DNA of 64,000 bases from an uncultured Acidobacteriota bacterium (GCA_963805975.1 CAWDVR010000002.1:1056001-1120000); one strand, 5' to 3'; positions 2,357 to 59,687 are shown, numbered from the stretch's first letter. Notes: generated from the sequence alone by a model not told the origin. Translations and numbers: made by a program.

Positions 2357-2495
2357 GGGCGGTCATCTTCGCACGCTCCCCAAGGGTCTAGCACCAGGCA
2401 AAGACCTTGTGCCATGATTGCTGCCAACAGAGCAGACGAAGCATGGGGCCCGAGCGAGCCGGTGGGGCGGAATCCCGGTGGGTCCAATCAGGGAC

Positions 2496-4049
2496 ATGGG
2501 TCAGTCGCCCACCACGGCGCCGAGCGAGGGCATGAGCGGAACGCACGACGAAAGCGGTCCGATCGCGGGCCGAACCAGCCAGACGGCCGAGATCTCGGCC
2601 GATCTGGCTTCCCCCGACCTTCTCGACCCGGTTGACCACCGCGCGCCGCTGATTCTCGGCGCGCCGACCTTCCACGCCATCACCGAGGCGGTAGCGCGGC
2701 CGCTCGAGCGGCCGCCCACGCGCGGCTGGTGGATCTGCTTCCTCACCTCCCTCTCGATGCTGGGCCTTCTGGGCGTCGCCATCGCCTGGCTGTTCTGGGA
2801 GGGGATCGGCGTCTGGGGCCTCAACAACCCCGTCGGCTGGGCGTTCGACATCACCAACTTCGTGTTCTGGGTGGGCATCGGCCACGCCGGCACGCTGATC
2901 TCGGCGATCCTCTTCCTCTTCCGCCAGAAGTGGCGGACCTCGATCAACCGCTCCGCGGAGGCGATGACCATCTTCGCGGTGATGTGCGCATTGATCTTCC
3001 CCGGCATCCACGTCGGCCGGCCCTGGGTGGCGTACTGGATGTCGCCGCTTCCCAACCAGATGGACATGTGGCCGCAGTTCAGAAGCCCGCTGATGTGGGA
3101 CGTCTTCGCGGTCTCGATCTACGGCTCGGTCTCGGCGCTGTTCTGGTTCGTGGGCCTGGTGCCGGACCTGGCCACCATCCGCGACCGCTCGACCGGCCTG
3201 CGGCGCAAGATCTTCGGCGCGCTGGCCCTGGGCTGGCGCAGCTCGGTGCGCCACTGGCAGCACTACGAGAAGGCGTACCTGGTCCTCGCCGGGCTGGCGA
3301 CGCCGCTGGTGCTCTCGGTCCACTCCATCGTGTCGATGGACTTCGCGACCTCCCAGCTCCCCGGCTGGCACACCACCATCTTCCCGCCCTACTTCGTCGC
3401 CGGCGCCATCTTCTCGGGCTTCGCGATGGTGGTGACGCTGATGGTGATCACGCGCAAGGTGTTCGGCCTCGAGCAGGTGATCACCATGAAGCACTTCGAC
3501 TACATGGCCAAGATCATGCTCGTCACCGGCATGATGGTGGGCTACGCCTACAGCCTGGAGTTCTTCATCGCCTGGTTCTCGGGCAGCGCCTACGAGCTGT
3601 TCACGTTCAAGAACCGCGCCTTCGGGCCCTATGCCTGGGCCTACTGGACGATGGTCTCCTGCAACGTGCTCTCGCCGCAGCTCTTCTGGTTCAAGAAGGT
3701 GCGCTCGTCCCTGCTGTGGCTGTTCGTGCTCTCGATCTTCGTCAACGTCGGCATGTGGTTCGAGCGCTTCGTGATCATCGTCACCTCGCTGCACCGGGAC
3801 TTCCTGCCGTCCTCCTGGTTCTACTTCACGCCGACGTTCTTCGACATCGCGACGATGATCGGCAGCTTCGGCCTGTTCTTCACCATGTTCTGCCTCTTCG
3901 TGCGCTTCCTGCCGATCGTCGCCACCGCCGAGGTGAAGACGGTGCTGCCACAGGCGGCGGCGCATCCGCTGGTGGCGCCGAGGATCGAGCACGACGAGCC
4001 TGCCGTCGTCGGCCGGCGTTCGGATCTCGCCCGAGGAGAAGCCGGCTGA
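2496..4049 (+). CDS. actC: ACIII quinol-oxidising membrane subunit ActC (NrfD/PsrC family), copy 1; start uncertain (2418/2496/2532)
   Basis: [75 protein letters not shown]. Confidence 0.93.
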
Positions 4050-4606
4050 TGGCCCTGTTGCGGCCCAGCCTGCCGGCCGGCGACCGCTTCGGCGCTCTCG
4101 CCGAGTACGCCTCGCCCGCGGCGCTCTACCATGCCTGCGAGGCGGTGCGCGACGCCGGCTACACGCGCTGGGACGCGCACACGCCGTTCCCCGTGCACGG
4201 GCTGGACCGGGCCATGGGCCTCAAGGCCTCGCGCCTCCCTTGGGTGTCGCTCGTCCTGGCGCTCGGCGGCGGCCTGGCCGGCATGGGCCTCCAGGGCTGG
4301 GTGAGCACGACCGCCTACCCGCTGGTGATCAGCGGCAAGCCGTTCTTCAGCTGGCCGGCGTTCGTTCCCGTGACCTTCGAGCTGGCGGTGCTCGGCGGCG
4401 CCCTGGGCGCGGTGTTCGGCATGTTCGCCATGAACCAGTTGCCTACCCTGTACCACCCGCTCTTCGGCAGCGCGAGCTTCGAGCGGGCGAGTGACGACGG
4501 CTTCTTCATCTCGATCGAGTCCTGGGACCCCCAGTTCGACGCCGACCGGACGGTCGAGTTCCTGCGCCGCCTGGGAGCCACCCAGGTCGAGCTGGTCGCG
4601 AGCTAG
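4049..4606 (+). CDS. actD: ACIII subunit ActD (DUF3341), copy 1
   Basis: ATG overlaps the actC stop; DAHTPFPVHGLDRAMG, YPLVISGKPFFSWPAFVPVTFEL; two TM helices. Confidence 0.9.
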   Translation: MALLRPSLPAGDRFGALAEYASPAALYHACEAVRDAGYTRWDAHTPFPVHGLDRAMGLKASRLPWVSLVLALGGGLAGMGLQGWVSTTAYPLVISGKPFFSWPAFVPVTFELAVLGGALGAVFGMFAMNQLPTLYHPLFGSASFERASDDGFFISIESWDPQFDADRTVEFLRRLGATQVELVAS

Positions 4607-4618
4607 GCGAGCCTCCCG

Positions 4619-5845
4619 ATGAGCGATCACGGCCACCACCCGCACCCGCCCGTGCTGCGCGCCTCGTCGCTGTGGCTGCCGCCGGACCATGCCTGGCGTC
4701 GCCTGCCGAAGCTCGGCCTGGTGCTGGCGGTGCTGGGGCTCGGCGGCAGCCTGGCTCTCGGGCTCCTCTCCCACGACGGGCGGCACCAGCTCTGGCACTC
4801 CTGGCTCGTGGGCTCGCTCTTCGTGCTCTCCGTGGCCCTGGGCGGCCTCTTCTTCGTGCTCGTCCACCACGCCACGCAGGCGGGTTGGAGCGTGGTAGTG
4901 CGGCGGATCGCCGAGAACGCCATGGCCACGCTGCCCTTCCTGGCGCTGCTGTTCGTGCCACTGCTCTTTGGCATGCACGACCTCTTTCACTGGAGCCATG
5001 CCGACGCGGTGGCCGCGGACCCGTTGCTCGCCCACAAACGGCCCTACCTCAACGTGCCGTTCTTCCTGATCCGCACCCTGGCCTACTTCGGCATCTGGTC
5101 GTTTCTGGCGATCTGGTTCGGCCGGCTGTCCCGGCTCCAGGATCAGACCGGCGACCACGAGCTCACCCGGCGGATGCGGCGGGCGAGCGCGCCGGGGCTG
5201 CTGCTCTTCGCCATCAGCGTGACCTTCTTCGCCTTCGATTGGGTGATGTCGCTCGACCCCCACTGGTACTCGACGATCTTCGGGGTCTACTTCTTCGCCG
5301 GCTCGACGGTCGCCTTCTTCGCCTTCCTGGCACTGGTGGCTCTCGGCCAGCGGCACATGCTCGCCCGGGTGCTGAACGCCGAGCACCTGCACGACATCGG
5401 CAAGCTGCTCTTCGCCTTCGTCGCCTTCTGGGCCTACATGGCGTTCTCCCAGTACCTGCTCATCTGGTACGCCAACCTTCCGGAGGAGACCGGCTTCTTC
5501 GCCCAGCGTCTGAACGGCTCGTGGCGGCCGGCGAGCGCGGTGCTCGCCCTCGGGCATTTCGTGGTGCCGTTCTTCTTCCTCCTGCCGCGCACCACCAAGC
5601 GCCACACCACCGCTCTGGCCGCGGCCTCGGTGTGGCTGCTGGTGATGCACTTGCTCGACCTCTACTGGCTGGTGATGCCGAGCCTCCATGCGGACGGTAT
5701 GGCGCCGAGCTTGCTCGATCTCGCGACGCTGATAGGCTGTGGCGGTGTCTTTCTGGCGGCTTTCGGTTGGTCCCAGAGCCGTCAGGCCTTGGTGCCGTTG
5801 CGCGACCCGCGTCTTCCGGAGTCGCTCACCTTCGAGAACGTTTGA
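4619..5845 (+). CDS. actF: ACIII membrane subunit ActF, copy 1
   Basis: AGWSVVVRRIAE, KRPYLNVPFF, DWVMSLDPHWYSTIFG, FSQYLLIWYANLPEET. Confidence 0.9.
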   Translation: MSDHGHHPHPPVLRASSLWLPPDHAWRRLPKLGLVLAVLGLGGSLALGLLSHDGRHQLWHSWLVGSLFVLSVALGGLFFVLVHHATQAGWSVVVRRIAENAMATLPFLALLFVPLLFGMHDLFHWSHADAVAADPLLAHKRPYLNVPFFLIRTLAYFGIWSFLAIWFGRLSRLQDQTGDHELTRRMRRASAPGLLLFAISVTFFAFDWVMSLDPHWYSTIFGVYFFAGSTVAFFAFLALVALGQRHMLARVLNAEHLHDIGKLLFAFVAFWAYMAFSQYLLIWYANLPEETGFFAQRLNGSWRPASAVLALGHFVVPFFFLLPRTTKRHTTALAAASVWLLVMHLLDLYWLVMPSLHADGMAPSLLDLATLIGCGGVFLAAFGWSQSRQALVPLRDPRLPESLTFENV

Positions 5846-5909: not shown

Positions 5910-6625
5910 ATGTCCAAGCACCTCAAGTCCCTGGCGGGCACCGGCCTAGCCTTTGCCCTCGCCCTCGCCACCAGCCCTGTCTTCGCCGCCGGCATCACCG
6001 GCACCGTCACCTACACCGGGAAGGTACCCACCCTGAAACCCCTCGCCATGGACGCCGACCCGGGCTGTGCCGCCAAGCACTCCGGCCCGGTGCCGAGCGA
6101 GGTGCTGGTGCTCGGTTCGGGCAACACCATGGCCAACGTCATGGTGCGGGTCAAGAACGCTCCCGCGGGCGGCACCGCCCCGTCGACGCCGGCGGTGATC
6201 GACCAGAAGGGCTGCCAGTACTCCCCGCACGTCCTCGGGATCATGGTCAACCAGACCTTGAAGCTCAAGAACTCCGACGGCGTGCTGCACAACGTCCACG
6301 CCCTGCCCAAGGTCAACACGCCCTTCAACATGGCGATGCCGGCCAACCGCACTCGAGGCGGACACCAAGTTCGGCAAGGAAGAGGGCATGTTCCTCGTCA
6401 AGTGCGACGTCCATCGGCTGGATGACCGCCTACGTCGGCGTGTTCTCGAACCCCTTCTTCGCGGTCTCGGGCAAGGACGGCAAGTTCTCGATCCCGAGCC
6501 TGCCGCCGGGCACCTACGAGCTCGAGGCCTGGCACGAGAAGCTCGGCGTCAAGACCGCCAGCGTGACGGTCACCGCGGACAAGCCGGCGACCGCCAACTT
6601 CGCGTTCGCCGCGCCGGGCGGCTGA
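5910..6625 (+). CDS. Exported cupredoxin-like protein with a C-terminal carboxypeptidase-regulatory-like (Ig) domain; two apparent +1 frameshifts near 6353 and 6415
   Basis: GGAGG RBS and signal peptide; DQKGCQYSPHV, NSDGVLHNVH; rejoined frames give KCDVH(G)WM then LPPGTYELEAWHEKLG. Confidence 0.75.
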
Positions 6626-6666: not shown

Positions 6667-8466
6667 ATGGCCACCACCGCGACCCAAGCACCAGCCCACT
6701 CCCACCACGGGAGTGGGCACCACGACGCTGCGCACGAGCACGCCCATCCCGACCTGGGCTTCTGGCGCAAGTACGTGTTCTCGACCGACCACAAGGTCAT
6801 CGGCATCTGGTATGCGGTGACCGGCCTGCTGTTCCTGTTCTTCGGCTTCTGCCTGGTGATGCTGATGCGCTGGCAGCTCGCCTTCCCCGGGCGGGCGCTG
6901 CCGATCATCGGCAACCTGCTCGGCGAGGCCCGCATGCCGGGCGGCGCCATGCTGCCCGAGTTCTACAACGAGCTCGGCGCCATGCACGGCACGATCATGG
7001 TGTTCCTCGGGGTCGTGCCGCTGGCGGTCGGCGGTTTCGGCAACTTCGTGCTGCCGCTCCAGATCGGCGCCCCCGACATGGCGTTCCCGAAGATCAACCT
7101 GGCGAGCTACTGGTCGTACTTCCTGGGCGGCGTGACCATGCTGGCGAGCTTCTTCGTGCCCGGCGGCGCGGCGCAGTCCGGCTGGACGTCGTACGCGCCG
7201 CTCTCGGTGATCGCCGGTGAAGGCCAGACGATGTGGCTCATCGGCATGATCTTCCTCATCACTTCCTCGCTGCTCGGCTCGATCAACTTCATCGTCACTA
7301 CGGTCCAGCTCAGAGCGCCCGGCCTCTCCTACTTCCGGCTCCCGTTCTTCGTCTGGGCGCAGCTCGTCACCTCGTTCCTTCTGCTCCTCGCCTTCCCGCC
7401 GCTCGAGGCCGCCGGCATCCTGCAGCTGATGGACCGGCTGGCCGGGTCCAGCTTCTTCATGCCCAGCGGCCTGGTGGTCTCCGGCCAGATAGCGGCCTAC
7501 ACCGGCGGCGGCAACCCGATCCTGTGGCAGCACCTGTTCTGGTTCCTCGCCCACCCCGAGGTCTACGTGCTGATCCTGCCGGCTTTCGGGATCGTGGCGG
7601 AAGTGATGGCCAACAACACCCGGAAACCGCTCTTCGGCTACAAGATCATGGTGCACTCGTTGTGGTTCCTGGGCTTCATGTCGTTCATCGTCTGGGCGCA
7701 CCACATGTTCTTCACCGGCATGGGCACGACGATGGCGGCCTTCTTCCAGACCACCACGATGATCATCTCGATCCCCTCGGTGGCGCTCCTGACCTCGCTC
7801 CTCATCTCGCTCTGGGGCGGCTCGATCCGGTTCAACACGCCGATGCTCTTCGCGCTCGCCTTCCTGCCGATGTTCGGCATCGGCGGCCTGACCGGCCTGC
7901 CGCTGGGCCTCTCGGCCGCGGACATCCCGCTCCACGACACCTACTACGTGATCGGGCACTTCCACTACGTGGTGGCGCCGGGCACCCTCTTCGCGCTCTT
8001 CGCCGGCATCTACTACTGGTTCCCCAAGGCCACCGGACGGATGATGAGCGAGCGCCTGGGCAAGCTCCACTTCTGGCCTTCGCTGATCTTCATCAACGGC
8101 ATCTTCATGCCGATGTTCATCCAGGGCCTGGCGGGAGTGTCGCGCCGCCTGTACGACGGCGGCGCCTCGTACGACTTCGCGCAAGAGGTGAGCCACTGGA
8201 ACGTGTTCATGTCCTACTCGGCCTGGGGCCTGGCGATCGCCCAGATCCCGTTCATCATCAACTTCTTCTGGAGCATCAAGCGCGGCCAGAAGGTGGGCGA
8301 CAACCCCTGGAACGCCACGACCATCGAGTGGGCGGCCCCGTCGCCGCCGCCGCACGGCAACTTCCTCACGCCGCCCGAAGCACACCGCGGCCCGTACGAG
8401 TACAGCGTGCCCGGACAGCCGCTCGACTACTCACCGCAGTACCAATCGGAACAACGGGCGAGCTGA
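6667..8466 (+). CDS. coxA: Haem-copper oxygen reductase subunit I, A1-like, with the K-channel Lys replaced by Leu
   Basis: TDHKVIG, MHGTIM, GNF..GAPDMAFPKIN, FWFLAHPEVY, WAHHMF, HDTYYVIGHFHY, GVSRR. Confidence 0.95.
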   Translation: MATTATQAPAHSHHGSGHHDAAHEHAHPDLGFWRKYVFSTDHKVIGIWYAVTGLLFLFFGFCLVMLMRWQLAFPGRALPIIGNLLGEARMPGGAMLPEFYNELGAMHGTIMVFLGVVPLAVGGFGNFVLPLQIGAPDMAFPKINLASYWSYFLGGVTMLASFFVPGGAAQSGWTSYAPLSVIAGEGQTMWLIGMIFLITSSLLGSINFIVTTVQLRAPGLSYFRLPFFVWAQLVTSFLLLLAFPPLEAAGILQLMDRLAGSSFFMPSGLVVSGQIAAYTGGGNPILWQHLFWFLAHPEVYVLILPAFGIVAEVMANNTRKPLFGYKIMVHSLWFLGFMSFIVWAHHMFFTGMGTTMAAFFQTTTMIISIPSVALLTSLLISLWGGSIRFNTPMLFALAFLPMFGIGGLTGLPLGLSAADIPLHDTYYVIGHFHYVVAPGTLFALFAGIYYWFPKATGRMMSERLGKLHFWPSLIFINGIFMPMFIQGLAGVSRRLYDGGASYDFAQEVSHWNVFMSYSAWGLAIAQIPFIINFFWSIKRGQKVGDNPWNATTIEWAAPSPPPHGNFLTPPEAHRGPYEYSVPGQPLDYSPQYQSEQRAS

Positions 8467-8475
8467 GGCCAGGCC

Positions 8476-9066
8476 ATGGAAATCCCCTACACCGTCGCGG
8501 AGCGGCCCGACACGGGCCTGAACAACGGCAAGATCGGCATCTGGCTGTTCCTCGCCTCGGAGGTCATGCTCTTCGGGGCGCTGTTTGCGACCTACCTGAT
8601 CATGCGCATCGGCGCCGAGACCTGGCCCCGCGGCGACTCGATCCTCAACGTGCCGCTCGCCACCATCAACACCGCCGTGCTGATCACCTCGAGCGTCACC
8701 ATGGTCATGGCCTGGGCGTCGCTCAAGCGCCACGACTTCGGTAAGTTCCGCCTGTTCATGGGCCTCACGGTACTGGCCGGCTTCGGCTTCCTGCTGATCA
8801 AGTACTTCGAGTACTCGGCCAAGCTCCACCATGGCCTGCTGCCCTCGACCAACACCTTCCTGGCGATCTACTTCACGCTCACCGGCCTGCACGGCCTGCA
8901 CGTCATCGGCGGCATGGTGGTCAACGGCTACCTCTGGGGCCCCGGCTCCAAGCTCTGGAAGACCAACCCCGAGCACTTCACCAACCGGGTGGAGAACTCG
9001 GGGCTGTTCTGGCATTTCGTCGACCTGGTGTGGATCTTCCTGTTCCCGGTCCTCTATCTTCTCTAG
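8476..9066 (+). CDS. coxC: Haem-copper oxidase subunit III
   Basis: GIWLFLASEVMLFGALF, NTAVLITSS, TGLHGLHV, FWHFVDLVWIFLFP. Confidence 0.93.
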   Translation: MEIPYTVAERPDTGLNNGKIGIWLFLASEVMLFGALFATYLIMRIGAETWPRGDSILNVPLATINTAVLITSSVTMVMAWASLKRHDFGKFRLFMGLTVLAGFGFLLIKYFEYSAKLHHGLLPSTNTFLAIYFTLTGLHGLHVIGGMVVNGYLWGPGSKLWKTNPEHFTNRVENSGLFWHFVDLVWIFLFPVLYLL

Positions 9067-9096
9067 ACAGCGGGCAAGCACGTAGGAGCCGTCGCC

Positions 9097-9394
9097 ATGG
9101 ACCACCACGCTGACCTCGACCGCCACGTCAAGACCTACATCCTCGTCTTCGTGACCCTGCTGGTTCTGACGATCGTCACTGTCGCCGTGGCGCGGCTGCA
9201 CCTGCCCGTCGCCGGCGCGGTGGCGGTGGCGCTGATCGTGGCCTCGATCAAGGGCGACGCTGGTCGCCGGCTTCTTCATGCACCTCCTCCACGAGCGCAA
9301 GCTCATCTACTGGGTGCTCGGGTTCACCGTGGCCTTCTTCCTCGCAGTGCTGCTGATGCCACTCTGGACGCACTTCGATCCGATCACCAATTGA
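9097..9394 (+). CDS. coxD: Haem-copper oxidase subunit IV (one extra G near 9252)
   Basis: YILVFVTLLVLTIVTV..IVASIK continues after the frameshift as ATLVAGFFMHL; three TM helices. Confidence 0.8.
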
Positions 9395-9404
9395 GGGGCT
9401 TCCC

Positions 9405-9602
9405 ATGAACCTCAAGAGCTTCCACGTCGTCTTCATCGTCTGCGCGATCGCCCTCGCCTACCTGCTCGGCGCCTGGGTCCTCCAGAGCCCGGCGCTCACC
9501 GGGGCGCCGCGGCTCGCGGCCGCGGCCGGTGCGTTCGGCGCGGGCCTGGCGCTGGTCGCCTACGGGGCTTGGTTCCTGCGCTATTCCCGGAGACGAGGAT
9601 GA
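9405..9602 (+). CDS. Small 2-TM membrane protein
   Basis: MNLKSFHVVFI..., two hydrophobic helices and a basic C-terminus; tightly packed in the operon. Confidence 0.65.
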   Translation: MNLKSFHVVFIVCAIALAYLLGAWVLQSPALTGAPRLAAAAGAFGAGLALVAYGAWFLRYSRRRG

Positions 9603-9886
9603 GCGGGCGGCTGCGCCCGCTGGCGCTCCCTGCCGGCGCGCTGCTGGCCGCTGCGCTCTGGGCGGTGCCGGCGATCGCGTGCACCGTGTGCTACGGCGCT
9701 GACGCCAACGCCTCGCCGCTCCTCACCGCCGCAAGGCTGGGGGTCTTCCTGCTCCTCGGGATCACCGTCGCGTTGCTCGGCGGCTTCGCGAGATTCTTCT
9801 TCTATCTGCGCAACCGTGCCCGGCAAGTCGAGAGCGAGAGCATCGCCGCGGAGTGGGCGCAACTGCAACGGAGTGCCTCGTCATGA
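9599..9886 (+). CDS. Small membrane protein with an exported CxxC (ACTVCYG)
   Basis: ATGA overlaps at both ends; signal-like segment, then CTVC, then a TM helix. Confidence 0.65.
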   Translation: MSGRLRPLALPAGALLAAALWAVPAIACTVCYGADANASPLLTAARLGVFLLLGITVALLGGFARFFFYLRNRARQVESESIAAEWAQLQRSASS

Positions 9887-10683
9887 CCAGTTGGCTACCC
9901 CCGATCGCCTCGGAGCACGGCCCCCAGATCGACAGCGCCCTCACCTGGGTTCACTGGCTGATGCTGGTGCTCTTCGTCGGCTGGATCATCTTCTTCGTCG
10001 TCGCCCTCTGGCGGTTCCGGCGCTCGGCGAACCCGGTGGCGAGCTATACCGGCGCCACCAGCCACGCCTCGAGCTGGCTCGAAGGCGGGGTGGCGGTGGC
10101 CGAGGCCATCCTCCTGATCGGGCTCTCGATCCCGCTCTGGGCGGACCGCGTGGCCGAGTTCCCGCCGGAGAGCGAGTCCGTGGTGGTGCGCGTGGTGGGC
10201 GAGCAGTTCGCCTGGAACGTGCACTACCCCGGCCCTGACGGCACGTTCGGCCGCACGGCGATCGACAAGATCGACGTCCAGAGCAATCCCCTGGGCCTCG
10301 ACCGGACCGACCTCGCGGCCCAGGACGACGTCACGACGGTGAACCAGCTCTACCTGCCGGTGGGTAAGCCGGTGATCGTCCACTTGAGCAGCAAGGACGT
10401 CATCCACAGCTTCGGCCTCCCGGAGATGCGCATCAAGCAGGACGCCGTGCCGGGCATCGTCATCCCGGTCTGGTGGAAGCCCACCGTCACCACCGCCGAG
10501 ATGCGCCAGCGCCTGGGCAAGCCCGAGTTCGTCTACGAGATCGCCTGCGCCCAGCTCTGCGGTATCAGCCACGCCAGCATGCGAGGCTTCGTCACCATCC
10601 AGGAGCCGGCCGAGTTCCAGGCCTGGATGGACGAGCAAGTGGCGGCCCAAGCCTCGACCGGGGAAGACGCGATCTGGGAGTAG
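9883..10683 (+). CDS. coxB: Haem-copper oxidase subunit II (CuA), no fused cytochrome c
   Basis: Two TM helices, GEQFAWNVHYPG, SKDVIHSF, KQDAVPG, CuA motif CAQLCGISHASM. Confidence 0.92.
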   Translation: MTSWLPPIASEHGPQIDSALTWVHWLMLVLFVGWIIFFVVALWRFRRSANPVASYTGATSHASSWLEGGVAVAEAILLIGLSIPLWADRVAEFPPESESVVVRVVGEQFAWNVHYPGPDGTFGRTAIDKIDVQSNPLGLDRTDLAAQDDVTTVNQLYLPVGKPVIVHLSSKDVIHSFGLPEMRIKQDAVPGIVIPVWWKPTVTTAEMRQRLGKPEFVYEIACAQLCGISHASMRGFVTIQEPAEFQAWMDEQVAAQASTGEDAIWE

Positions 10684-10768: not shown

Positions 10769-11818
10769 ATGAGCACAGGCGAGAACCTACCGCAGGACAC
10801 CGAGGTGGCGTACTACGCGCACGCCTTTATCACCTCCTCAAACCGGGTGCGGTACGCGGTGATTACGATCACGGTCGCAAGTACGCTTCTCTTTGCGGGG
10901 CACCACAACTCAGATCGTCTAAGCTGGTTCAACTCCCGAGTGAACGTCGCCTACGAAGCTCTGCACGAGCAGGTGTGGGAGAAGTCGGCCGACTTGCCAA
11001 AGGACCAGAAGAGCATCGCCCAGAGATGGGCTGAAGCCCGGCGCTTGAAGACTCGAGAAGAGATTCAGGAACACGTCCAAAGCCTGGAGGCTGCGCGCAC
11101 TGAGCACATCCTCCTTCTGCATATGCCCTTCTTTGGTATCGCATTCGACGTAAATGACATTGGGTTCTTTGGAAGTATTGCCCTGCTGGTCCTGATGCTG
11201 ATGCTGGCTTTCGCAGTATCAAGACAGCACGAAAACCTCTACCTGGCCCTTTGGAAGGTCCGGCAAGCGTGGCGCGATGAAGGATGTCCAGATTCGCCCA
11301 AGAGTTATGCAAACCTTATTTATCACACGCTGGCAATGACCCAGCAGTTCAGCCGGCCGCCCAGCCTAGCTCGATGGGACAAGCGCAGCCTAAGAAGTCT
11401 CTCCAACGTACTCCTTCTATCGCCAGTCATCGTCCAAGCTGTCTGCCTGCAGCATGACTGGTCTAGCCGTGATCTCGGTCTCGCGCTCAATCGCAACGCG
11501 ACAATCATCTCGCTTTCACTTCAGTTCGCTTCGCTGTGCATTGTCACTGTGCTGACCGTCGTTTGCCTCCTCTATACTCGATCCAACGAGAAGCGCTGGG
11601 AAAAGACTTTCTTTCGGATCAATCCTTCGTTTGACGGGACACCACAACCGTCTTGGCTTGAGTGGGTACAAGTTCGCGCGCCAAAGCAGCTCTACTGCGA
11701 AGAACACCATCCAGGAAGGTCACGGCCCGTGCAGGGAAGTGTTCAGACCGGTGTACCGCAGCATTCTGAAACGGACACGGGTATAGCTCCCGCAAAGGTG
11801 GAACCTAGGGACGCATAA
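10769..11818 (+). CDS. Hypothetical multi-pass membrane protein, lower GC
   Basis: 349-aa ORF with about four hydrophobic segments; visibly more AT-rich codons than its neighbours. Confidence 0.6.
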   Translation: MSTGENLPQDTEVAYYAHAFITSSNRVRYAVITITVASTLLFAGHHNSDRLSWFNSRVNVAYEALHEQVWEKSADLPKDQKSIAQRWAEARRLKTREEIQEHVQSLEAARTEHILLLHMPFFGIAFDVNDIGFFGSIALLVLMLMLAFAVSRQHENLYLALWKVRQAWRDEGCPDSPKSYANLIYHTLAMTQQFSRPPSLARWDKRSLRSLSNVLLLSPVIVQAVCLQHDWSSRDLGLALNRNATIISLSLQFASLCIVTVLTVVCLLYTRSNEKRWEKTFFRINPSFDGTPQPSWLEWVQVRAPKQLYCEEHHPGRSRPVQGSVQTGVPQHSETDTGIAPAKVEPRDA

Positions 11819-24180: not shown

Positions 24181-24753
24181 TCAGTGGCTGGGGACCGGGG
24201 CGGGTGCCTCGGCGCCAGCCTCACCGCCGGCCGGGGCCGCCGCGGGGGCGCCCGCCGCCACACCGGCGCCGCCGGCCTGCCAGGGCAGCTTGGTCTCCAG
24301 AGTGACCGTGGTGGTCCCGCCGAGGCTCTGCAGGTAGGCGATGACGGCGAGGATCTCGTCGTCGGTCAAGCCGATCGGCGGCTTGCTGATCGCTGGCATG
24401 CCGGGGTTGAAGCCCGGCACGATGAACTTGTCCGGCTCGTAGAGCGACTGCGCCAGGTACTCGACGTCGGAGAGGCCGGCGATCCGGGTCGCGGCGCGGG
24501 CGCCGATGCCCTCGAGGTCCGGGAAGCGCAGCGCTCCCGACTTGCCCACCGTGTGGCAGGTGAAGCACAGGCCCTTGCCGTCCATGATCTCGCGGCCGAC
24601 CTTGAGCATCTGCTCCGGCGTCATGTCCTTGCTGAGCACCACCTCCGCGGGCGGATGCACTTCCTTCTGCGGCACCAACTGGCCGACATACGTGTAGAAG
24701 CCGGTCGTGGCGACCGTCAGCGCGGCGATGCGCAGGCTCACGGGGACCTTCAC
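24181..24753 (-). CDS. Monohaem cytochrome c with an N-terminal anchor
   Basis: GKGLCFTCH, YLAQSLYEP..IVPGF..GMP. Confidence 0.88.
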   Translation of the reverse strand: MKVPVSLRIAALTVATTGFYTYVGQLVPQKEVHPPAEVVLSKDMTPEQMLKVGREIMDGKGLCFTCHTVGKSGALRFPDLEGIGARAATRIAGLSDVEYLAQSLYEPDKFIVPGFNPGMPAISKPPIGLTDDEILAVIAYLQSLGGTTTVTLETKLPWQAGGAGVAAGAPAAAPAGGEAGAEAPAPVPSH

Positions 24754-26632
24754 GCGACCGCTCCCAGGTCCGTGGAGCTCGGCCCAGGGGGCTCGCCGGG
24801 GGAGGAGAGCTCACCTTGGGCTCCCAGTCCTTCTTGCCGCCCAGGCTGGCGAGCCAGAACACGAAGCCGATCAGCAGGAAGAAGATCAGCACGGTCACCG
24901 AGACCACCTGGGTGGCAAAGCCCAGCGTGGGGGTGAAGGCGTCCACCGAGGTGTCGCGGATGACGCCGTAGACGTGCCAGTGCTGGCGCAGGCCCGAGCG
25001 CACGTAGCCCATCAGCCCCATCAGCCAGGTGAAGGTGACGGCGATGAAGATCAGCACGTACTGGGAGATGGGCGCGATCTGGCCCCAGCGCGGCTCGCCG
25101 GCCTTCTTGGCGTTCCTGAACATGAAGACGTCGATCACCGTCACCGCCACCATGGCGAAGAGCACCGACAGCACCTGCGGCACCGAGAACGCGATGCGCA
25201 CGGAAGCCTCGACGAAGTAGCCGTAGACACCGAGGAAGATCACGAACGCCGCGACGCCGACGAAGATGCCGAGCTGCGCGCGGTTGCCCGCCTTCGCCCA
25301 GGGGACGATCGGGGTCTTACCGCTGCGGCGATAGAGCAGGAAGCTCACGAAGGTGGTGAGGATCAGGATGTTGACCGCGGTGTTCTTGGCCGACATGACG
25401 CCCAGGAATTGCAGGGCGGGGTGGGCGGAGCCGCCCATCGCCCGAATCTCGGACACGGTCGAGATGATCGAGCGCGGCGTCGCCCAGACCGCGAAGCAGA
25501 GCGCCACCAGGATCAGCAGGTACTTGATGTACTTCTGGAACTTCTCGGCGCCGGCGATCCGCCCCATCCCCAGCCACAGGTAGTAGTTGGCGCCGAGGAA
25601 GAGGTTGCCGATCAGCACCGCCTGGATGATGAACAGCCAGGAGAAGGCGCCGCCCATCATGGTCAGCCCCAGCGTCTGGGAGTAGGCGTAGATCTCCTTG
25701 GCCAGGTAGTAGCCGGCGAAGGGCAGCGGCAGGAAGGCGCAGATCGCCACGAAGTTGCCGATGTAGCCCATCCAGTCGTAGTGGGCGCGCTCCTCGTCGG
25801 TCTTCGCCCCCAGGAACTTGAAGGCGGCGTAGGCCGCGGCCACCGAGCCGCCGAAGGCGACGTTGGCGATGATGCGGTGGACGTTGATCGGCATCCAGGT
25901 GTAGTTGCGCACCGCGTCCCAGGTGCTGATCAGCGCGCCGGTCTCGGAGATCCCCGACGGCGAGGTCATGAAGGTGAGCCAGGCGTTGGCGATCAGCATG
26001 ATCGCCGTGCCGACCACGTTCAGGCCCACTCCCAGGAGCAGGTGGACGCGGGGCGAGAACTTCCCCCAGCCGTAGTAGTAGGTGTAGAGGAAGAAGGCCT
26101 CGAAGAAGAACAGCCCGACGTAGGGCAGGAAGGTAGGCGAGAAGACGCTCACCAGGTAGGTGGTGAACTTCGGGTAGAGGATGATCAGCCCGAAGGTCAG
26201 CATCGCCCCGAACGTCGCGGTGAGCGAGAACGACACCGAGAGCAGCTTGGTGAACTCGTGCGCCAGGCGGTCGTAGCGCGGGTCCTTGGTGCGGTAGCCG
26301 ATGAACTCGATGATCAGCGCGAACATCGGCACGGCCAGCACGAAGGCGGCGAAGAGCAGGTGGAGCTGGGCCGCGATCCAGACCGCGACCCGGCTGCCGA
26401 TCCTGGGGAAGGCGCGGTACTCGGCGTCGACGTAGGGCTTCTCCCGGTCCTTCTGCTCCTGCTCGGCGTGCTGGTCGGCGAGCCCCTCGTCGCGCGGGGT
26501 CTCGACGACCTCGCCGCCCGGGGTGCTGGTGGGGGCCCGGTACTCCCGCTTGAGGAGCAGGGTCGAGACGCCGACGATCATCGCCAGCCCGAGGAGCGCG
26601 ACCAGGCCGGCGGCGAGACCCTTCTTCATCAT
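24750..26632 (-). CDS. Cytochrome bd subunit I (CydA)-like oxidoreductase of the Nitrospira 'bd-like'/OR-N type; stop at 24750 needs one indel near 24790-24830
   Basis: QLHLLFAAFVLAVP, FFFEAFFLYTY, IANAWLTFMTSP, NVHRIIAN, MGYVRSGLRQHWHVYG; ~13 TM helices; GTGA overlap with the next gene. Confidence 0.82.
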
Positions 26633-27300
26633 GGCGTCACCTGCTGCGGTGCAGCCGGGGTGGTCTCTGCCGGGACCGCGGGGGCCGGGGCGGCCGGGTT
26701 GGGAGCGACCTGGGGCGGCATGGTCCCGCCGGAGCGCTCGACGCGCCGCTGCTGGAGCGCACGCAGGTGCACGATGATCGCCCAGCGGTCCGCGACGGGG
26801 ATCGGGTAGCGGTACGCGGGCATCAGGCCGAAGCCGTTGGTGATGGTGTCGAAGAGCTGGCCGTCGGGCATCTGGCGCAGCCGGTCGTCGTGGAACGACG
26901 GGGTCGGCACCTTGCCGCGCTCGAAGAGGATGCCCTTGCCGTCGCCGTTCTTGTCGTGGCAGACCGCGCAGTAGATGTCGTAGCGCCGCGCACCGCGCTC
27001 GCGCACCGTCTCGTCCACCGCCATCGGCACCGCCATGACGAACGTGCCGGCGGCGTCCTTGCCCGTCCAGTAGGGGCCGTCGTCCCGCAGCTCGCCGCGC
27101 GCCACGGTGCCGGGAACCGGCGGCCGCATCGCCTTGCCGTCGTAGAAGAAGGCGCTCGCCGCCTGGGGCTCGTAGCGCGGCTGCACGTCCATGTTGGGAT
27201 TCATATGGATCGGCGGCCGGCTGGAGGTGCAGCCGCGGGCGCACCCGGAGAGGGCGAGGAGGACGAGACCCAGGGCCAGGTGCTGGCTGCGCCGGCTCAC
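26629..27300 (-). CDS. actE: ACIII monohaem lipoprotein ActE, copy 1
   Basis: Lipobox [46 protein letters not shown]. Confidence 0.9.
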
Positions 27301-58001: not shown

Positions 58002-59687
58002 ATGAGCACTGAATCGTTCCTGACGGCACCGGAGCCCGGGGTCGAAACGACCGCCACCGAGCTGCCGCGCCGCCATTTCATGAACAGCAAGTACGGCATC
58101 CTGTCGTGGCTGCTGACCCAGGACCACAAGCGGATCGCCATCCTCTACCTGATCTCGGTCTCGGCTTTTTTCGCGCTCGGCGGCGTGATGGCGATGCTGA
58201 TCCGCCTCGAGCTCCTCACCCCGGCGGGCGACCTGTTCCAGGGCGACACCTACAACCGGGTGTTCACCATGCACGGCGTCTTGATGGTGTTCTTCTTCCT
58301 GGTGCCGGTGATCCCGGCGATCCTCGGCAACTTCCTGCTGCCGATCATGATCGGGGCCAAGGACCTGGCGTTCCCCAAGATCAACCTGGCGAGCTGGTAT
58401 CTCTACACCATCGGCGGCGCGTTCACTCTCTACGCCATGCTGCACGGCGGCGTCGACACCGGCTGGACCTTCTACACGCCGTTCTCCTCCGCCTACTCGA
58501 ACACCGGCGTGCTGGCGACGGCGGTCGGCGTCTTCATCGCCGGCTTCTCTTCGATCTTCACCGGTCTCAACTTCATCGTTACCGTGCACCGCATGCGGGC
58601 GCCGGGGCTGACCTGGTTCCGCCTGCCGCTCTTCGTGTGGGCCAACTACGCGACCAGTCTGGTGATCATGCTCGGCACGCCGGTGATCGCGGTGACCCTC
58701 TTCCTGCTGGCCCTCGAGCGCGGCCTCGGCCTGGGCATCTTCAACCCGGCCCTGGGCGGCGACCCGGTGCTCTTCCAGCACCTCTTCTGGTTCTACTCGC
58801 ACCCCGCGGTCTACATCATGGTGCTGCCGGCGATGGGCGTGGTCAGCGAGCTGGTGGCGGCCTTCGCCAGAAAGCCCGTTTTCGGCTACAAGGTGGTGGC
58901 CTTCGCCTCGATCGCCATCGCCGTTCTCGGCTTCCTGGTCTGGGGCCACCACATGTTCGTCTCCGGCCAGTCGGTGTACGCGGCGACGGTCTTCTCCGTG
59001 CTCTCGATGCTGGTGGCGATCCCCTCGGCGGTCAAGGTCTTCAACTGGACGACGACGCTCTACGAGGGCTCGGTCTCCTACGAGACGCCGATGCTCTACG
59101 GGCTGGGGTTCATCGGCCTGTTCACCATCGGCGGCCTGACCGGCGTGATGTTGGCGACGCTCGGCATCGACGTCCACGTGCACGACACCTACTTCATCGT
59201 CGCCCACTTCCACTACGTGATGGTGGGCGGCACGCTGATGGGCTATCTCGGCGGCCTCCACTACTGGTGGCCGAAGATGTTCGGCCGCATGTATCCGGCG
59301 TTCTGGTCGAAGCTGTCGGCGCTCTGCGTGTTCATCGGCTTCAACTTGACGTTCTTCCCGCAGTTCATCGTCGGGTACATGGGCATGCCGCGCCGCTACT
59401 GGACCTATCCGGCCGAGTTCCAGGTGCTGAACGTGCTCTCCTCGGCCGGTGCCTCGATCCTCGGCTTCGGCCTCCTGCTGCCGGCCTGCTACCTCTTGTG
59501 GTCGCTCGCCAAGGGCCGGGTGGCGGGCAACAACCCGTGGGGCGCAGTGGGGCTCGAGTGGGAGACCACCTCGCCGCCGCCCACCGAGAACTTCACCTCC
59601 ACCCCCGAGGTGGCCGGCGGCCCGTACGACTACATCAACAAGGACAAGATCTTCGCCTTCCCGCACGAGGAGGCACGCGTTGTCTAG
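58002..59687 (+). CDS. coxA: caa3 oxidase subunit I, A2 type
   Basis: [10 protein letters not shown] (YS motif), WGHHMF, IPSAVK (K-channel Lys present), AHFHY. Confidence 0.95.

Follow-up and report, generated by a model that had tools for sequence, protein, structure and literature searches.

An A1-type haem-copper oxidase clade without the K-channel lysine carries a conserved acid within helix 2 of subunit II

Introduction

Why the A-family haem-copper oxidases need two proton channels is a long-running question, and with it whether the lysine of the K-channel (K362) acts as a proton carrier or as a mobile positive charge. The role of K362 has been studied mostly with dead mutants, in which reduction of haem a3 is reported to be blocked (PMC12901375) and peroxidase activity to be spared (PMC10095113); a natural and widespread enzyme without the lysine separates the two roles. 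Such an enzyme is encoded in the window considered here, a 64,000-nucleotide stretch of DNA from an uncultured Acidobacteriota bacterium (GCA_963805975.1, CAWDVR010000002.1:1056001-1120000), where an operon on the + strand at positions 6667 to 10683 specifies an oxidase with leucine in place of K362. How do protons reach the active site of this enzyme? A preliminary description of the locus suggested either an altered proton route or altered chemistry. We find that the feature is real and clade-wide, the clade consisting of A1-derived oxidases that fail the canonical K-channel criterion, and we consider it moderately likely that a glutamate of subunit II takes over the task of the lysine. The clade (n = 98) is defined by an APG/GPG motif in helix X, with one sequence added from the tree, and not by the lysine itself. 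The features of subunit I on which the argument depends are as follows.

6667..8466, + strand: subunit I, A1 type (HPEVY), 599 amino acids; AlphaFold mean predicted local distance difference test (pLDDT) 89; template modelling (TM) score of 0.84 against the aa3 enzymes of P. denitrificans and of R. sphaeroides
7042..7098, + strand: D-channel entrance N126, D137 and N144, intact
7405..7407, + strand: Glu247 in helix V, clade-specific (Glu in 75/98 and Gln in 17/98 clade sequences; no Glu in 118 Lys-bearing sequences)
7552..7566, + strand: HPEVY, with a CuB histidine, the Glu286 equivalent (D-channel) and the Tyr288 equivalent (cross-link)
7747..7797, + strand: remodelled helix VIII, with Gln361 (349), Ser368 (A356), Ser371 (T359), Val372 (G360), Thr376 (F364) and Ser377 (S365)
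7786..7788, + strand: Leu374 at the K362 position, from an ungapped alignment; Ile, Leu or Val in 98/98 clade sequences

Subunit I and its missing lysine

The best matches of subunit I in the PDB are the aa3 subunits I of P. denitrificans and R. sphaeroides, to which helix VIII aligns without gaps, and residue equivalences were taken from an alignment that includes E. coli CyoB as the numbering reference. L374 corresponds to K362, S371 to T359, A311 to S299, S377 to 365, Y300 to Y288 and E298 to E286, which upholds the T359-to-Ser and K362-to-Leu changes originally described for helix VIII; the former is common in Lys-bearing enzymes too (53/118 sequences). The set Lys354, Thr351, Ser291 and Tyr280, by which PMC3084760 (Table 2) defines the A-type K-channel, reads Leu, Ser, Ala and Tyr here, and the enzyme is thus an A1-derived variant and not a canonical A1 member. 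The AlphaFold model of subunit I (pLDDT 89, predicted TM score 0.90) has TM scores of 0.82–0.84 to aa3 structures and offers no obvious replacement lysine, as all nine lysines of the subunit lie in loops or at helix ends according to the helix boundaries of the model, rather than its coordinates. A compensating lysine from another helix, which would have overturned the preliminary description, is therefore not seen.

The remainder of the active site is as first described. All six histidine ligands (H107, H296, H345, H346, H431 and H433), the cross-linking tyrosine Y300, the HPEVY glutamate E298 and the D-channel residues D137, N126 and N144 (equivalent to D135, N124 and N142) are kept, and in an alignment to 1AR1 the D-channel set of PMC3084760 Table 2 is complete (D137, N207, N126, N144, Y49, S147, S201 and E298). 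The six histidines together with the helix VI tyrosine are those of an A1 oxygen reductase. The protein is not of the B type, having a complete D-channel, Leu and not Thr at 362, and Ala and not Tyr at 299, nor is it a nitric oxide (NO) reductase of the cNOR or qNOR kind, as HPEVY keeps its tyrosine and the H-X-Arom-X-E motif is absent. Both subunits score below the standard NCBIfam cut-offs (582.8 bits against 670.75 for TIGR02891 CtaD_CoxA, and 131.3 against 147.7 for TIGR02866 CoxB), as does the clade, whereas the A2 paralog at 58002–59687 (YSHPAVY) passes the former at 682.9 and retains its lysine, in agreement with the preliminary description.

A sequencing error at the lysine site was ruled out. 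The Leu374 codon, CTC, differs from a lysine codon at all three bases, and among the 120 nearest homologues position 362 is Ile in 114, Val in four, Leu in two and Lys in none. Three one-base frameshifts in neighbouring genes of the source assembly might point to error or to a decaying gene, but with subunits I to III intact we regard the probability of either as negligible.

A clade without the lysine

Within the clade position 362 is Ile (78), Leu (13) or Val (7) and in no case Lys, so that the loss of lysine extends well beyond this one protein. The clade forms one branch, with a Shimodaira-Hasegawa-like approximate likelihood ratio (SH-aLRT) support of 100 when helix VIII is left out of the tree, and its named records come from Acidobacteriota, Verrucomicrobiota, Planctomycetota, Marinisomatota, Ignavibacteriota and other phyla. 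It is common among soil and freshwater records; no member was found on PLSDB plasmids, where all 1068 records fall below 60% identity. Scoring genomes by K362 would wrongly call this common oxidase defective.

Other parts of subunit I have changed together with the lysine. Ser at 356 is present in 98/98 clade sequences compared with 3/174 Lys-bearing ones, and Thr or Ser at 364 in 97/98 compared with 0/174, these new hydroxyls facing 120–200 degrees away from the old lysine on helix VIII. The S299 position is Ala or Gly in 79/98 and S365 is often replaced by a non-polar residue. A clade-specific row of polar residues is also seen in helix V (7360–7425), comprising Gln232 (96/98), Glu or Gln247 (92/98) and Gln253 (95/98).

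In thirteen clade sequences the D-channel entrance is altered, and nevertheless the six histidines, Glu286 and Tyr288 are kept; Glu247 is missing from all thirteen. Nine of them could be paired with a subunit II (seven with D132 changed to Gly or Arg, two to Glu), and the helix-2 acid described below is present in every one. The two genomes of this kind that were checked (G098 and G134) also carry other oxidases, and the altered-entrance enzymes may therefore be accessory.

Two further observations concern the membership of the clade. A sub-branch that has neither K362 nor the D-channel entrance (D132 to Gly, Arg, Ser or Ala) and keeps its active site comprises L038, L039, L040, L044, L113, L118, L127, P0126, P0127 and P0131. 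At L266 and L267, two genomes bearing the published Lys-less signature have an additional clade subunit I that stands by itself, none of subunits II to IV being seen in the 16 kb fetched.

An acid within helix 2 of subunit II

The relevant features of subunit II are the following.

9883..10683, + strand: subunit II (CuA), 266 amino acids from the ATG at 9883, without a cytochrome c domain
10081..10083, + strand: Glu67, matching the glutamate at the K-channel entrance (the entry glutamate; E. coli E89, R. sphaeroides E101); kept in 46/60 clade operons
10102..10104, + strand: Glu74, a new acid within the membrane span of helix 2, at the column of E. coli P96, and the proposed proton relay
10552..10554, + strand: Gln in the CuA motif (CAQLC); 59/60 clade operons, 11/98 Lys-bearing operons

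To relate the two subunits, every subunit I was paired with its neighbouring subunit II. An acid is present seven residues inward of the entry-glutamate column, at the CyoA Pro96 column, in 60/60 clade operons (Glu in 53, Asp in seven), and again in 11/11 and 4/4 further clade operons, some of which are possibly from the same genomes as before. Lys-bearing operons with an acid anywhere from +3 to +18 number 0/43 and, in a second sample with one duplicate, 0/55. The positions flanking the +7 acid are hydrophobic, as is the rest of the helix, and the acid sits two helical turns, about 10 Å, past the entry glutamate on the same helix face. Published along-channel distances (PMC9687966) place that depth roughly at K362–T359, and helices VII and VIII and helix II of subunit II are described as bordering one cavity (PMC10095113; PMC6778200).

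The helix-2 acid is new relative to the literature that we found, in which the loss of the lysine in this clade is already in print. No paper on the subunit II glutamate was found, only those of Degli Esposti on Lys-less A1 enzymes, in a search whose coverage excluded most subscription journals and bioRxiv supplements. Nothing on the channel of this enzyme came from PMC11102522 or PMC6431628. The lysine loss is consequently less of a surprise, and its partner glutamate presents a single-residue test.

The glutamine of the CuA motif is real, as first reported, but not diagnostic. The residues of the CuA site (His175, Cys222, Cys226, His230 and Met233) are invariant in 47 sequences, with Gln replacing Glu, and Gln also occurs in 11/98 Lys-bearing operons (3/43 and 8/55), which rules it out as a mark of altered chemistry. 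At this position it is the backbone carbonyl that is the copper ligand, and the CuA motif of T. thermophilus ba3 likewise has Gln.

Genomic evidence for oxygen reduction

From a sample of 301 genomes of the phylum, the 59 with the best matches were searched with family profiles; they were picked for carrying the clade enzyme, and kin among them are not independent. No claim is based on the unpublished genome G024. In 16/59 genomes the Lys-less enzyme is the sole PF00115 match, and it is apparently the only terminal oxidase in some: of these 16, 11 have no match to cytochrome bd, and in the other five the match is limited to a partial bd-like domain. G073, G110 and G258, with this sole haem-copper enzyme and no cytochrome bd, are single contigs, 100% complete, with haem A synthase; G044, of the same family and likewise without a bd match, G082 and G055 are 95–99% complete. 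The operons of ten of the 16, together with that of G266, all have the Lys-less helix and the +7 Glu. Haem A synthase is present in 13/13 genomes tested (the source genome, where the gene lies on contig C1, and 12 of the 16), NirK is above cut-off in 2/13, and there is no full-length NirS match in the 13. Haem A and haem O synthases lie inside 20 and 24 of 66 clade loci respectively. Haems of type a are probable; a b3-type site, in which the haem a3 tail would have been lost, was considered because of the G360V change and new prolines but rejected, as haem O and haem A synthases are encoded in the genome and often in clade loci.

Because the enzyme is the sole haem-copper oxidase in 16/59 genomes, and because three closed genomes have haem A synthase yet no bd, we favor ordinary oxygen reduction over NO or peroxide chemistry. 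Judged from genome content, an NO or peroxide enzyme would fit far less well than a housekeeping aa3 oxidase, and it is likely that the clade enzyme reduces oxygen to water.

A proposed proton route and its alternatives

We propose that this is an aa3 oxidase reducing oxygen with a K-pathway rerouted through the subunit II glutamate, a model to which we attach moderate confidence on the strength of the conservation patterns. In this model the buried glutamate would stand in for the K-channel lysine. Reductive-phase protons would enter at Glu67, the E101 equivalent, and use Thr376 (the F364 position) to reach Glu74, which lies two turns further in along that face of helix 2; the rest of the path would run via Ser371, Ser368 and the hydroxyl of the haem a3 side chain to Tyr300. 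Protons for the oxidative phase and for pumping would still come through the D-channel, and the electron donor to CuA would be a blue-copper protein or cytochrome c. That seven clade members with D132 changed to Gly or Arg keep all histidine ligands, the tyrosine, Glu286 and the helix-2 acid counts for a rerouted K-pathway, and a lysine is not universal in the superfamily, the B- and C-family oxidases having Thr or Gly at this position (PMC12901375, Table 2). If a glutamate can do the job of the lysine, then the proton relay is what matters.

Several points weigh against this model. The lysine is credited with positive-charge compensation, which a glutamate cannot give (PMC12901375). The entry glutamate is absent from 14/60 clade operons and from seven of the nine paired altered-entrance members, and the register of helix 2 is uncertain by about three residues, N-side anchors placing the acid at P108 and P-side anchors at I111. 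Both P108 and I111 presumably line the haem a3 tail beside helix VIII. The direction in which Glu74 points is one that we infer, the clade amounts to one evolutionary event, and a single family accounts for four of the best sole-oxidase genomes. A search for alternative oxidase (AOX) returned 0/5 with a silent control.

An alternative explanation, which we think rather unlikely, is that all protons of an oxygen reductase pass through the D-channel, the K-pathway being sealed and Glu74 serving a structural role in binding the haem tail, a lipid or an ion. The non-polar replacements at K362, S299 and often S365 would be expected in a sealed pathway, the D-channel is intact in most clade members, the presence of Glu247 tracks an intact D-channel, and the entry glutamate has been lost from the operons mentioned above. 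However, were the D-channel the only route in this clade then the altered-entrance members should be dead, whereas they retain the active site and the helix-2 acid; the canonical lysine mutant blocks haem a3 reduction despite an intact D-channel (PMC12901375), and a buried acid in 60/60 operons demands a reason. It is also doubtful, and in our view improbable, that a different substitute route is used, either the helix VII serines (a 'KC-channel') or the helix V polar row of Gln232, Glu247 and Gln253. Ser339 is present in 98/98 and Ser331 in 67/98 clade sequences, a published table classes relatives as KC-channel enzymes (PMC8239418), and the helix V residues are clade-specific. Nonetheless, the helix VII serines are shared by Lys-bearing enzymes (38 of 174 for Ser339 and 51 of 174 for the other, and the Flavobacterium row of the published table), Glu247 is gone from every altered-entrance member, and neither set of residues connects to the entry glutamate of subunit II.

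The preliminary description had offered altered chemistry beside an altered proton route, and it is the latter that is supported, by the clade-wide loss of lysine together with a fixed helix-2 acid and new helix VIII hydroxyls. An enzyme acting mainly as an NO reductase or peroxide scavenger would not need reductive-phase K-channel protons, and this is consistent with the peroxidase activity retained by K-channel mutants (PMC10095113), with the weak NO reduction of which A-family oxidases are capable (PMC11214002) and with the second, canonical A2 oxidase in the source genome. The kept cross-link tyrosine and the lack of the NO reductase Glu motif (criteria of PMC3084760), the 16 genomes in which it is the sole haem-copper enzyme, the scarcity of NirK and NirS and the haem A and O synthases within clade loci make this reading very unlikely. 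A sodium-coupled oxidase, with Na+ bound by the buried acids (Glu74 of subunit II and Glu247 of subunit I), seems to us similarly remote. A Na+-pumping cbb3 oxidase provides a precedent and there are two new buried carboxylates to account for, against which stand the intact D-channel and the many soil and freshwater records.

Lysine loss outside the clade

Convergence in other lineages also speaks for the proposed route. Among Lys-less operons outside the clade a helix-2 acid is present in 11/12, while in the remaining one position 362 is itself a Glu. An acid in helix VIII is found in 17/44 other Lys-less subunits I compared with 0/118 Lys-bearing ones. The starred branches of the tree force at least four changes, and an approximately unbiased (AU) test, using 41 of 78 rows and with groups named after the first tree had been seen, rejects a single origin of the 19 hydrophobic Lys-less rows (p = 1e-50). 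Another Lys-less group was noted that has Glu at 353 or Asp or Glu at 360 of helix VIII in 12/12 members (P0172, P0186, P0205, P0209, P0213, P0216, P0218, P0226–P0229 and P0261).

We tentatively suggest, as a broader proposal that is less likely to hold than the route itself, that the K-channel lysine of the A family is replaceable, and that several lineages independently swapped in a buried carboxylate, in helix 2 of subunit II here and in helix VIII elsewhere. This would constitute a second acid relay resembling that of the D-channel, good enough here to be the cell's only oxygen route, and the sub-branch that then lost the D-channel entrance may be a present-day counterpart of the A-to-B transition that has been proposed. 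Bearing against this, and against the rerouted K-pathway as well, the non-clade helix-2 acids lie at +10 to +16 with 7/11 near the helix end, only four pairs are independent (three in the same direction, none opposite and one without difference; p = 0.25), and no mid-helix acid is seen in a Lys-to-Gln lineage (0/3, with one Asp at +17). A wider sample of 60 regions, hand-picked from two lists and partly overlapping the earlier genomes, contained only Lys-bearing, clade and Lys-to-Gln enzymes and no further independent Lys-less lineage. With so few independent pairs, acids at helix ends and an acid-free Lys-to-Gln lineage, the notion that loss of the lysine needs an acid is suggestive rather than established.

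Operon organization and neighboring genes

The oxidase operon has the order I-III-IV-small open reading frame (ORF)-small ORF-II on the + strand. Its remaining genes, and two others to which reference is made, are as follows.

5910..6625, + strand: blue-copper (cupredoxin-like) gene upstream of subunit I, its frame shifted by one base near 6350 and again near 6414; its product is a candidate electron donor
8476..9066, + strand: subunit III, short CyoC/CtaE-length type, 196 amino acids
9097..9394, + strand: subunit IV, frame broken by one extra base near 9255; a relative matches TIGR02229
9405..9602, + strand: small membrane ORF, 65 amino acids, without family match
9599..9886, + strand: small CxxC membrane ORF, 95 amino acids, without family match; present in 27/66 clade loci
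58002..59687, + strand: subunit I of a second oxidase (A2 type), which keeps its Lys; for comparison only

The reading frames of subunits I, II and III are intact. The extra bases near 6350 and 6414 in the cupredoxin gene and in the subunit IV gene are missing from contigs of runs X1 and X2, and because these near-identical contigs come from two other studies the insertions at 6350, 6414 and 9255 are probably assembly errors. A His...Cys-x2-His-x2-Met motif is present in 19/23 members of the upstream blue-copper family, and a relative has a weak PDB match to a type 1 copper protein (E = 0.003); as subunit II has no cytochrome c domain, this protein is a likely electron donor. It also has a C-terminal carboxypeptidase-regulatory-like domain and is conserved in 27/66 clade loci. 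A promoter scan of the locus found nothing. Contigs from RNA libraries, 85–90% alike, span subunit I with helix VIII included, but they derive from relatives and may reflect carried-over DNA, and no argument here is built on them.

Directly upstream, at 2418–5845 (+), are ActC-, ActD- and ActF-like genes without ActA, ActB or ActE, an arrangement with the oxidase that recurs in G186, G236, G206 and G266. A full Act operon is situated at 47.8–55.6 kb of the window, where the A2 oxidase and a complete alternative complex III operon together occupy 48–60 kb. The A2 oxidase and the Lys-less enzyme are the only two PF00115 matches in the source genome. The nearest named relatives are metagenome-assembled genome proteins of Thermoanaerobaculia (Acidobacteriota). 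On the 3' side of subunit II, 10769–11818 (+) encodes a 349-residue membrane protein of differing composition with no Pfam match. In a long frame at 24221–27244 (-) the match to cytochrome bd subunit I is confined to the first 240 of its 418 positions, and many genomes that carry the clade have partial bd-like matches of a similar kind. Genes for haem O synthase, SCO and a DUF420-like protein lie about 8–10 kb before the window (G000:C2:1046140-1048270).

Comparison with known systems

Family definitions follow PMC11214002 and the layout of the K-pathway follows bioRxiv 10.1101/2022.04.13.488242. The closest structural counterparts are the aa3 oxidases of P. denitrificans (1AR1, 7ATE) and R. 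sphaeroides (1M56, 2GSM; K362M mutant 3OM3), with which the window enzyme shares the fold (TM scores as above), the six histidines and His-Tyr cross-link, the eight listed D-channel residues, the Mg-site His and Asp, a CuA subunit II and the entry glutamate. It differs from them in lacking K362, in having Ala for S299, in the new Ser356, Thr364 and Gln349, in Glu247 and the helix-2 Glu of subunit II, in extra prolines in helices IX and X, in the CuA Gln, and in its gene order of I-III-IV-x-x-II.

The nearest published group is the 'A1, KC-channel' subclade listed in 2021 by Degli Esposti et al. (Table S1 and the table for Fig. S7 in the supplement of PMC8239418), which includes Elusimicrobia and Methylacidiphilum sp. 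Yel. By the columns of the published table, four clade loci (L238, L240, L241 and L242) match 10/10 subunit I columns of the Methylacidiphilum row, from which it follows that lysine loss in this clade has already been published; the window protein matches 7/10 columns of the Elusimicrobia GWA2_38_7 row. All three operons with the KC signature that were fetched carry the +7 Glu. The table differs in scoring the entry glutamate only, and not the +7 acid, and in assigning the route to helix VII residues. Such a C-family-like route would make use of Ser339, which is fixed in the clade and yet occurs in 38/174 Lys-bearing sequences.

Lys-less A-family enzymes have also been described in acidophilic iron oxidisers and archaea (bioRxiv 10.1101/2020.03.01.968255). 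Those of the Acidithiobacillus rus operon and the Thermoplasmatales resemble the window enzyme in having a hydrophobic residue for the lysine and in keeping the D-channel (bioRxiv 10.1101/2020.03.01.968255; PMC8239418), and the proteobacterial acidophile enzymes have lost the CuA Glu as well. In contrast, they are classed in A2 or archaeal lineages and have lost the entry glutamate, as judged here from their published descriptions. The B-family ba3 oxidase of Thermus thermophilus similarly works without a lysine at this position (Thr312; PMC12901375, Table 2), although it is a distant relative (E about 1e-7), has no D-channel and uses a Thr/Ser/Tyr channel analogue.

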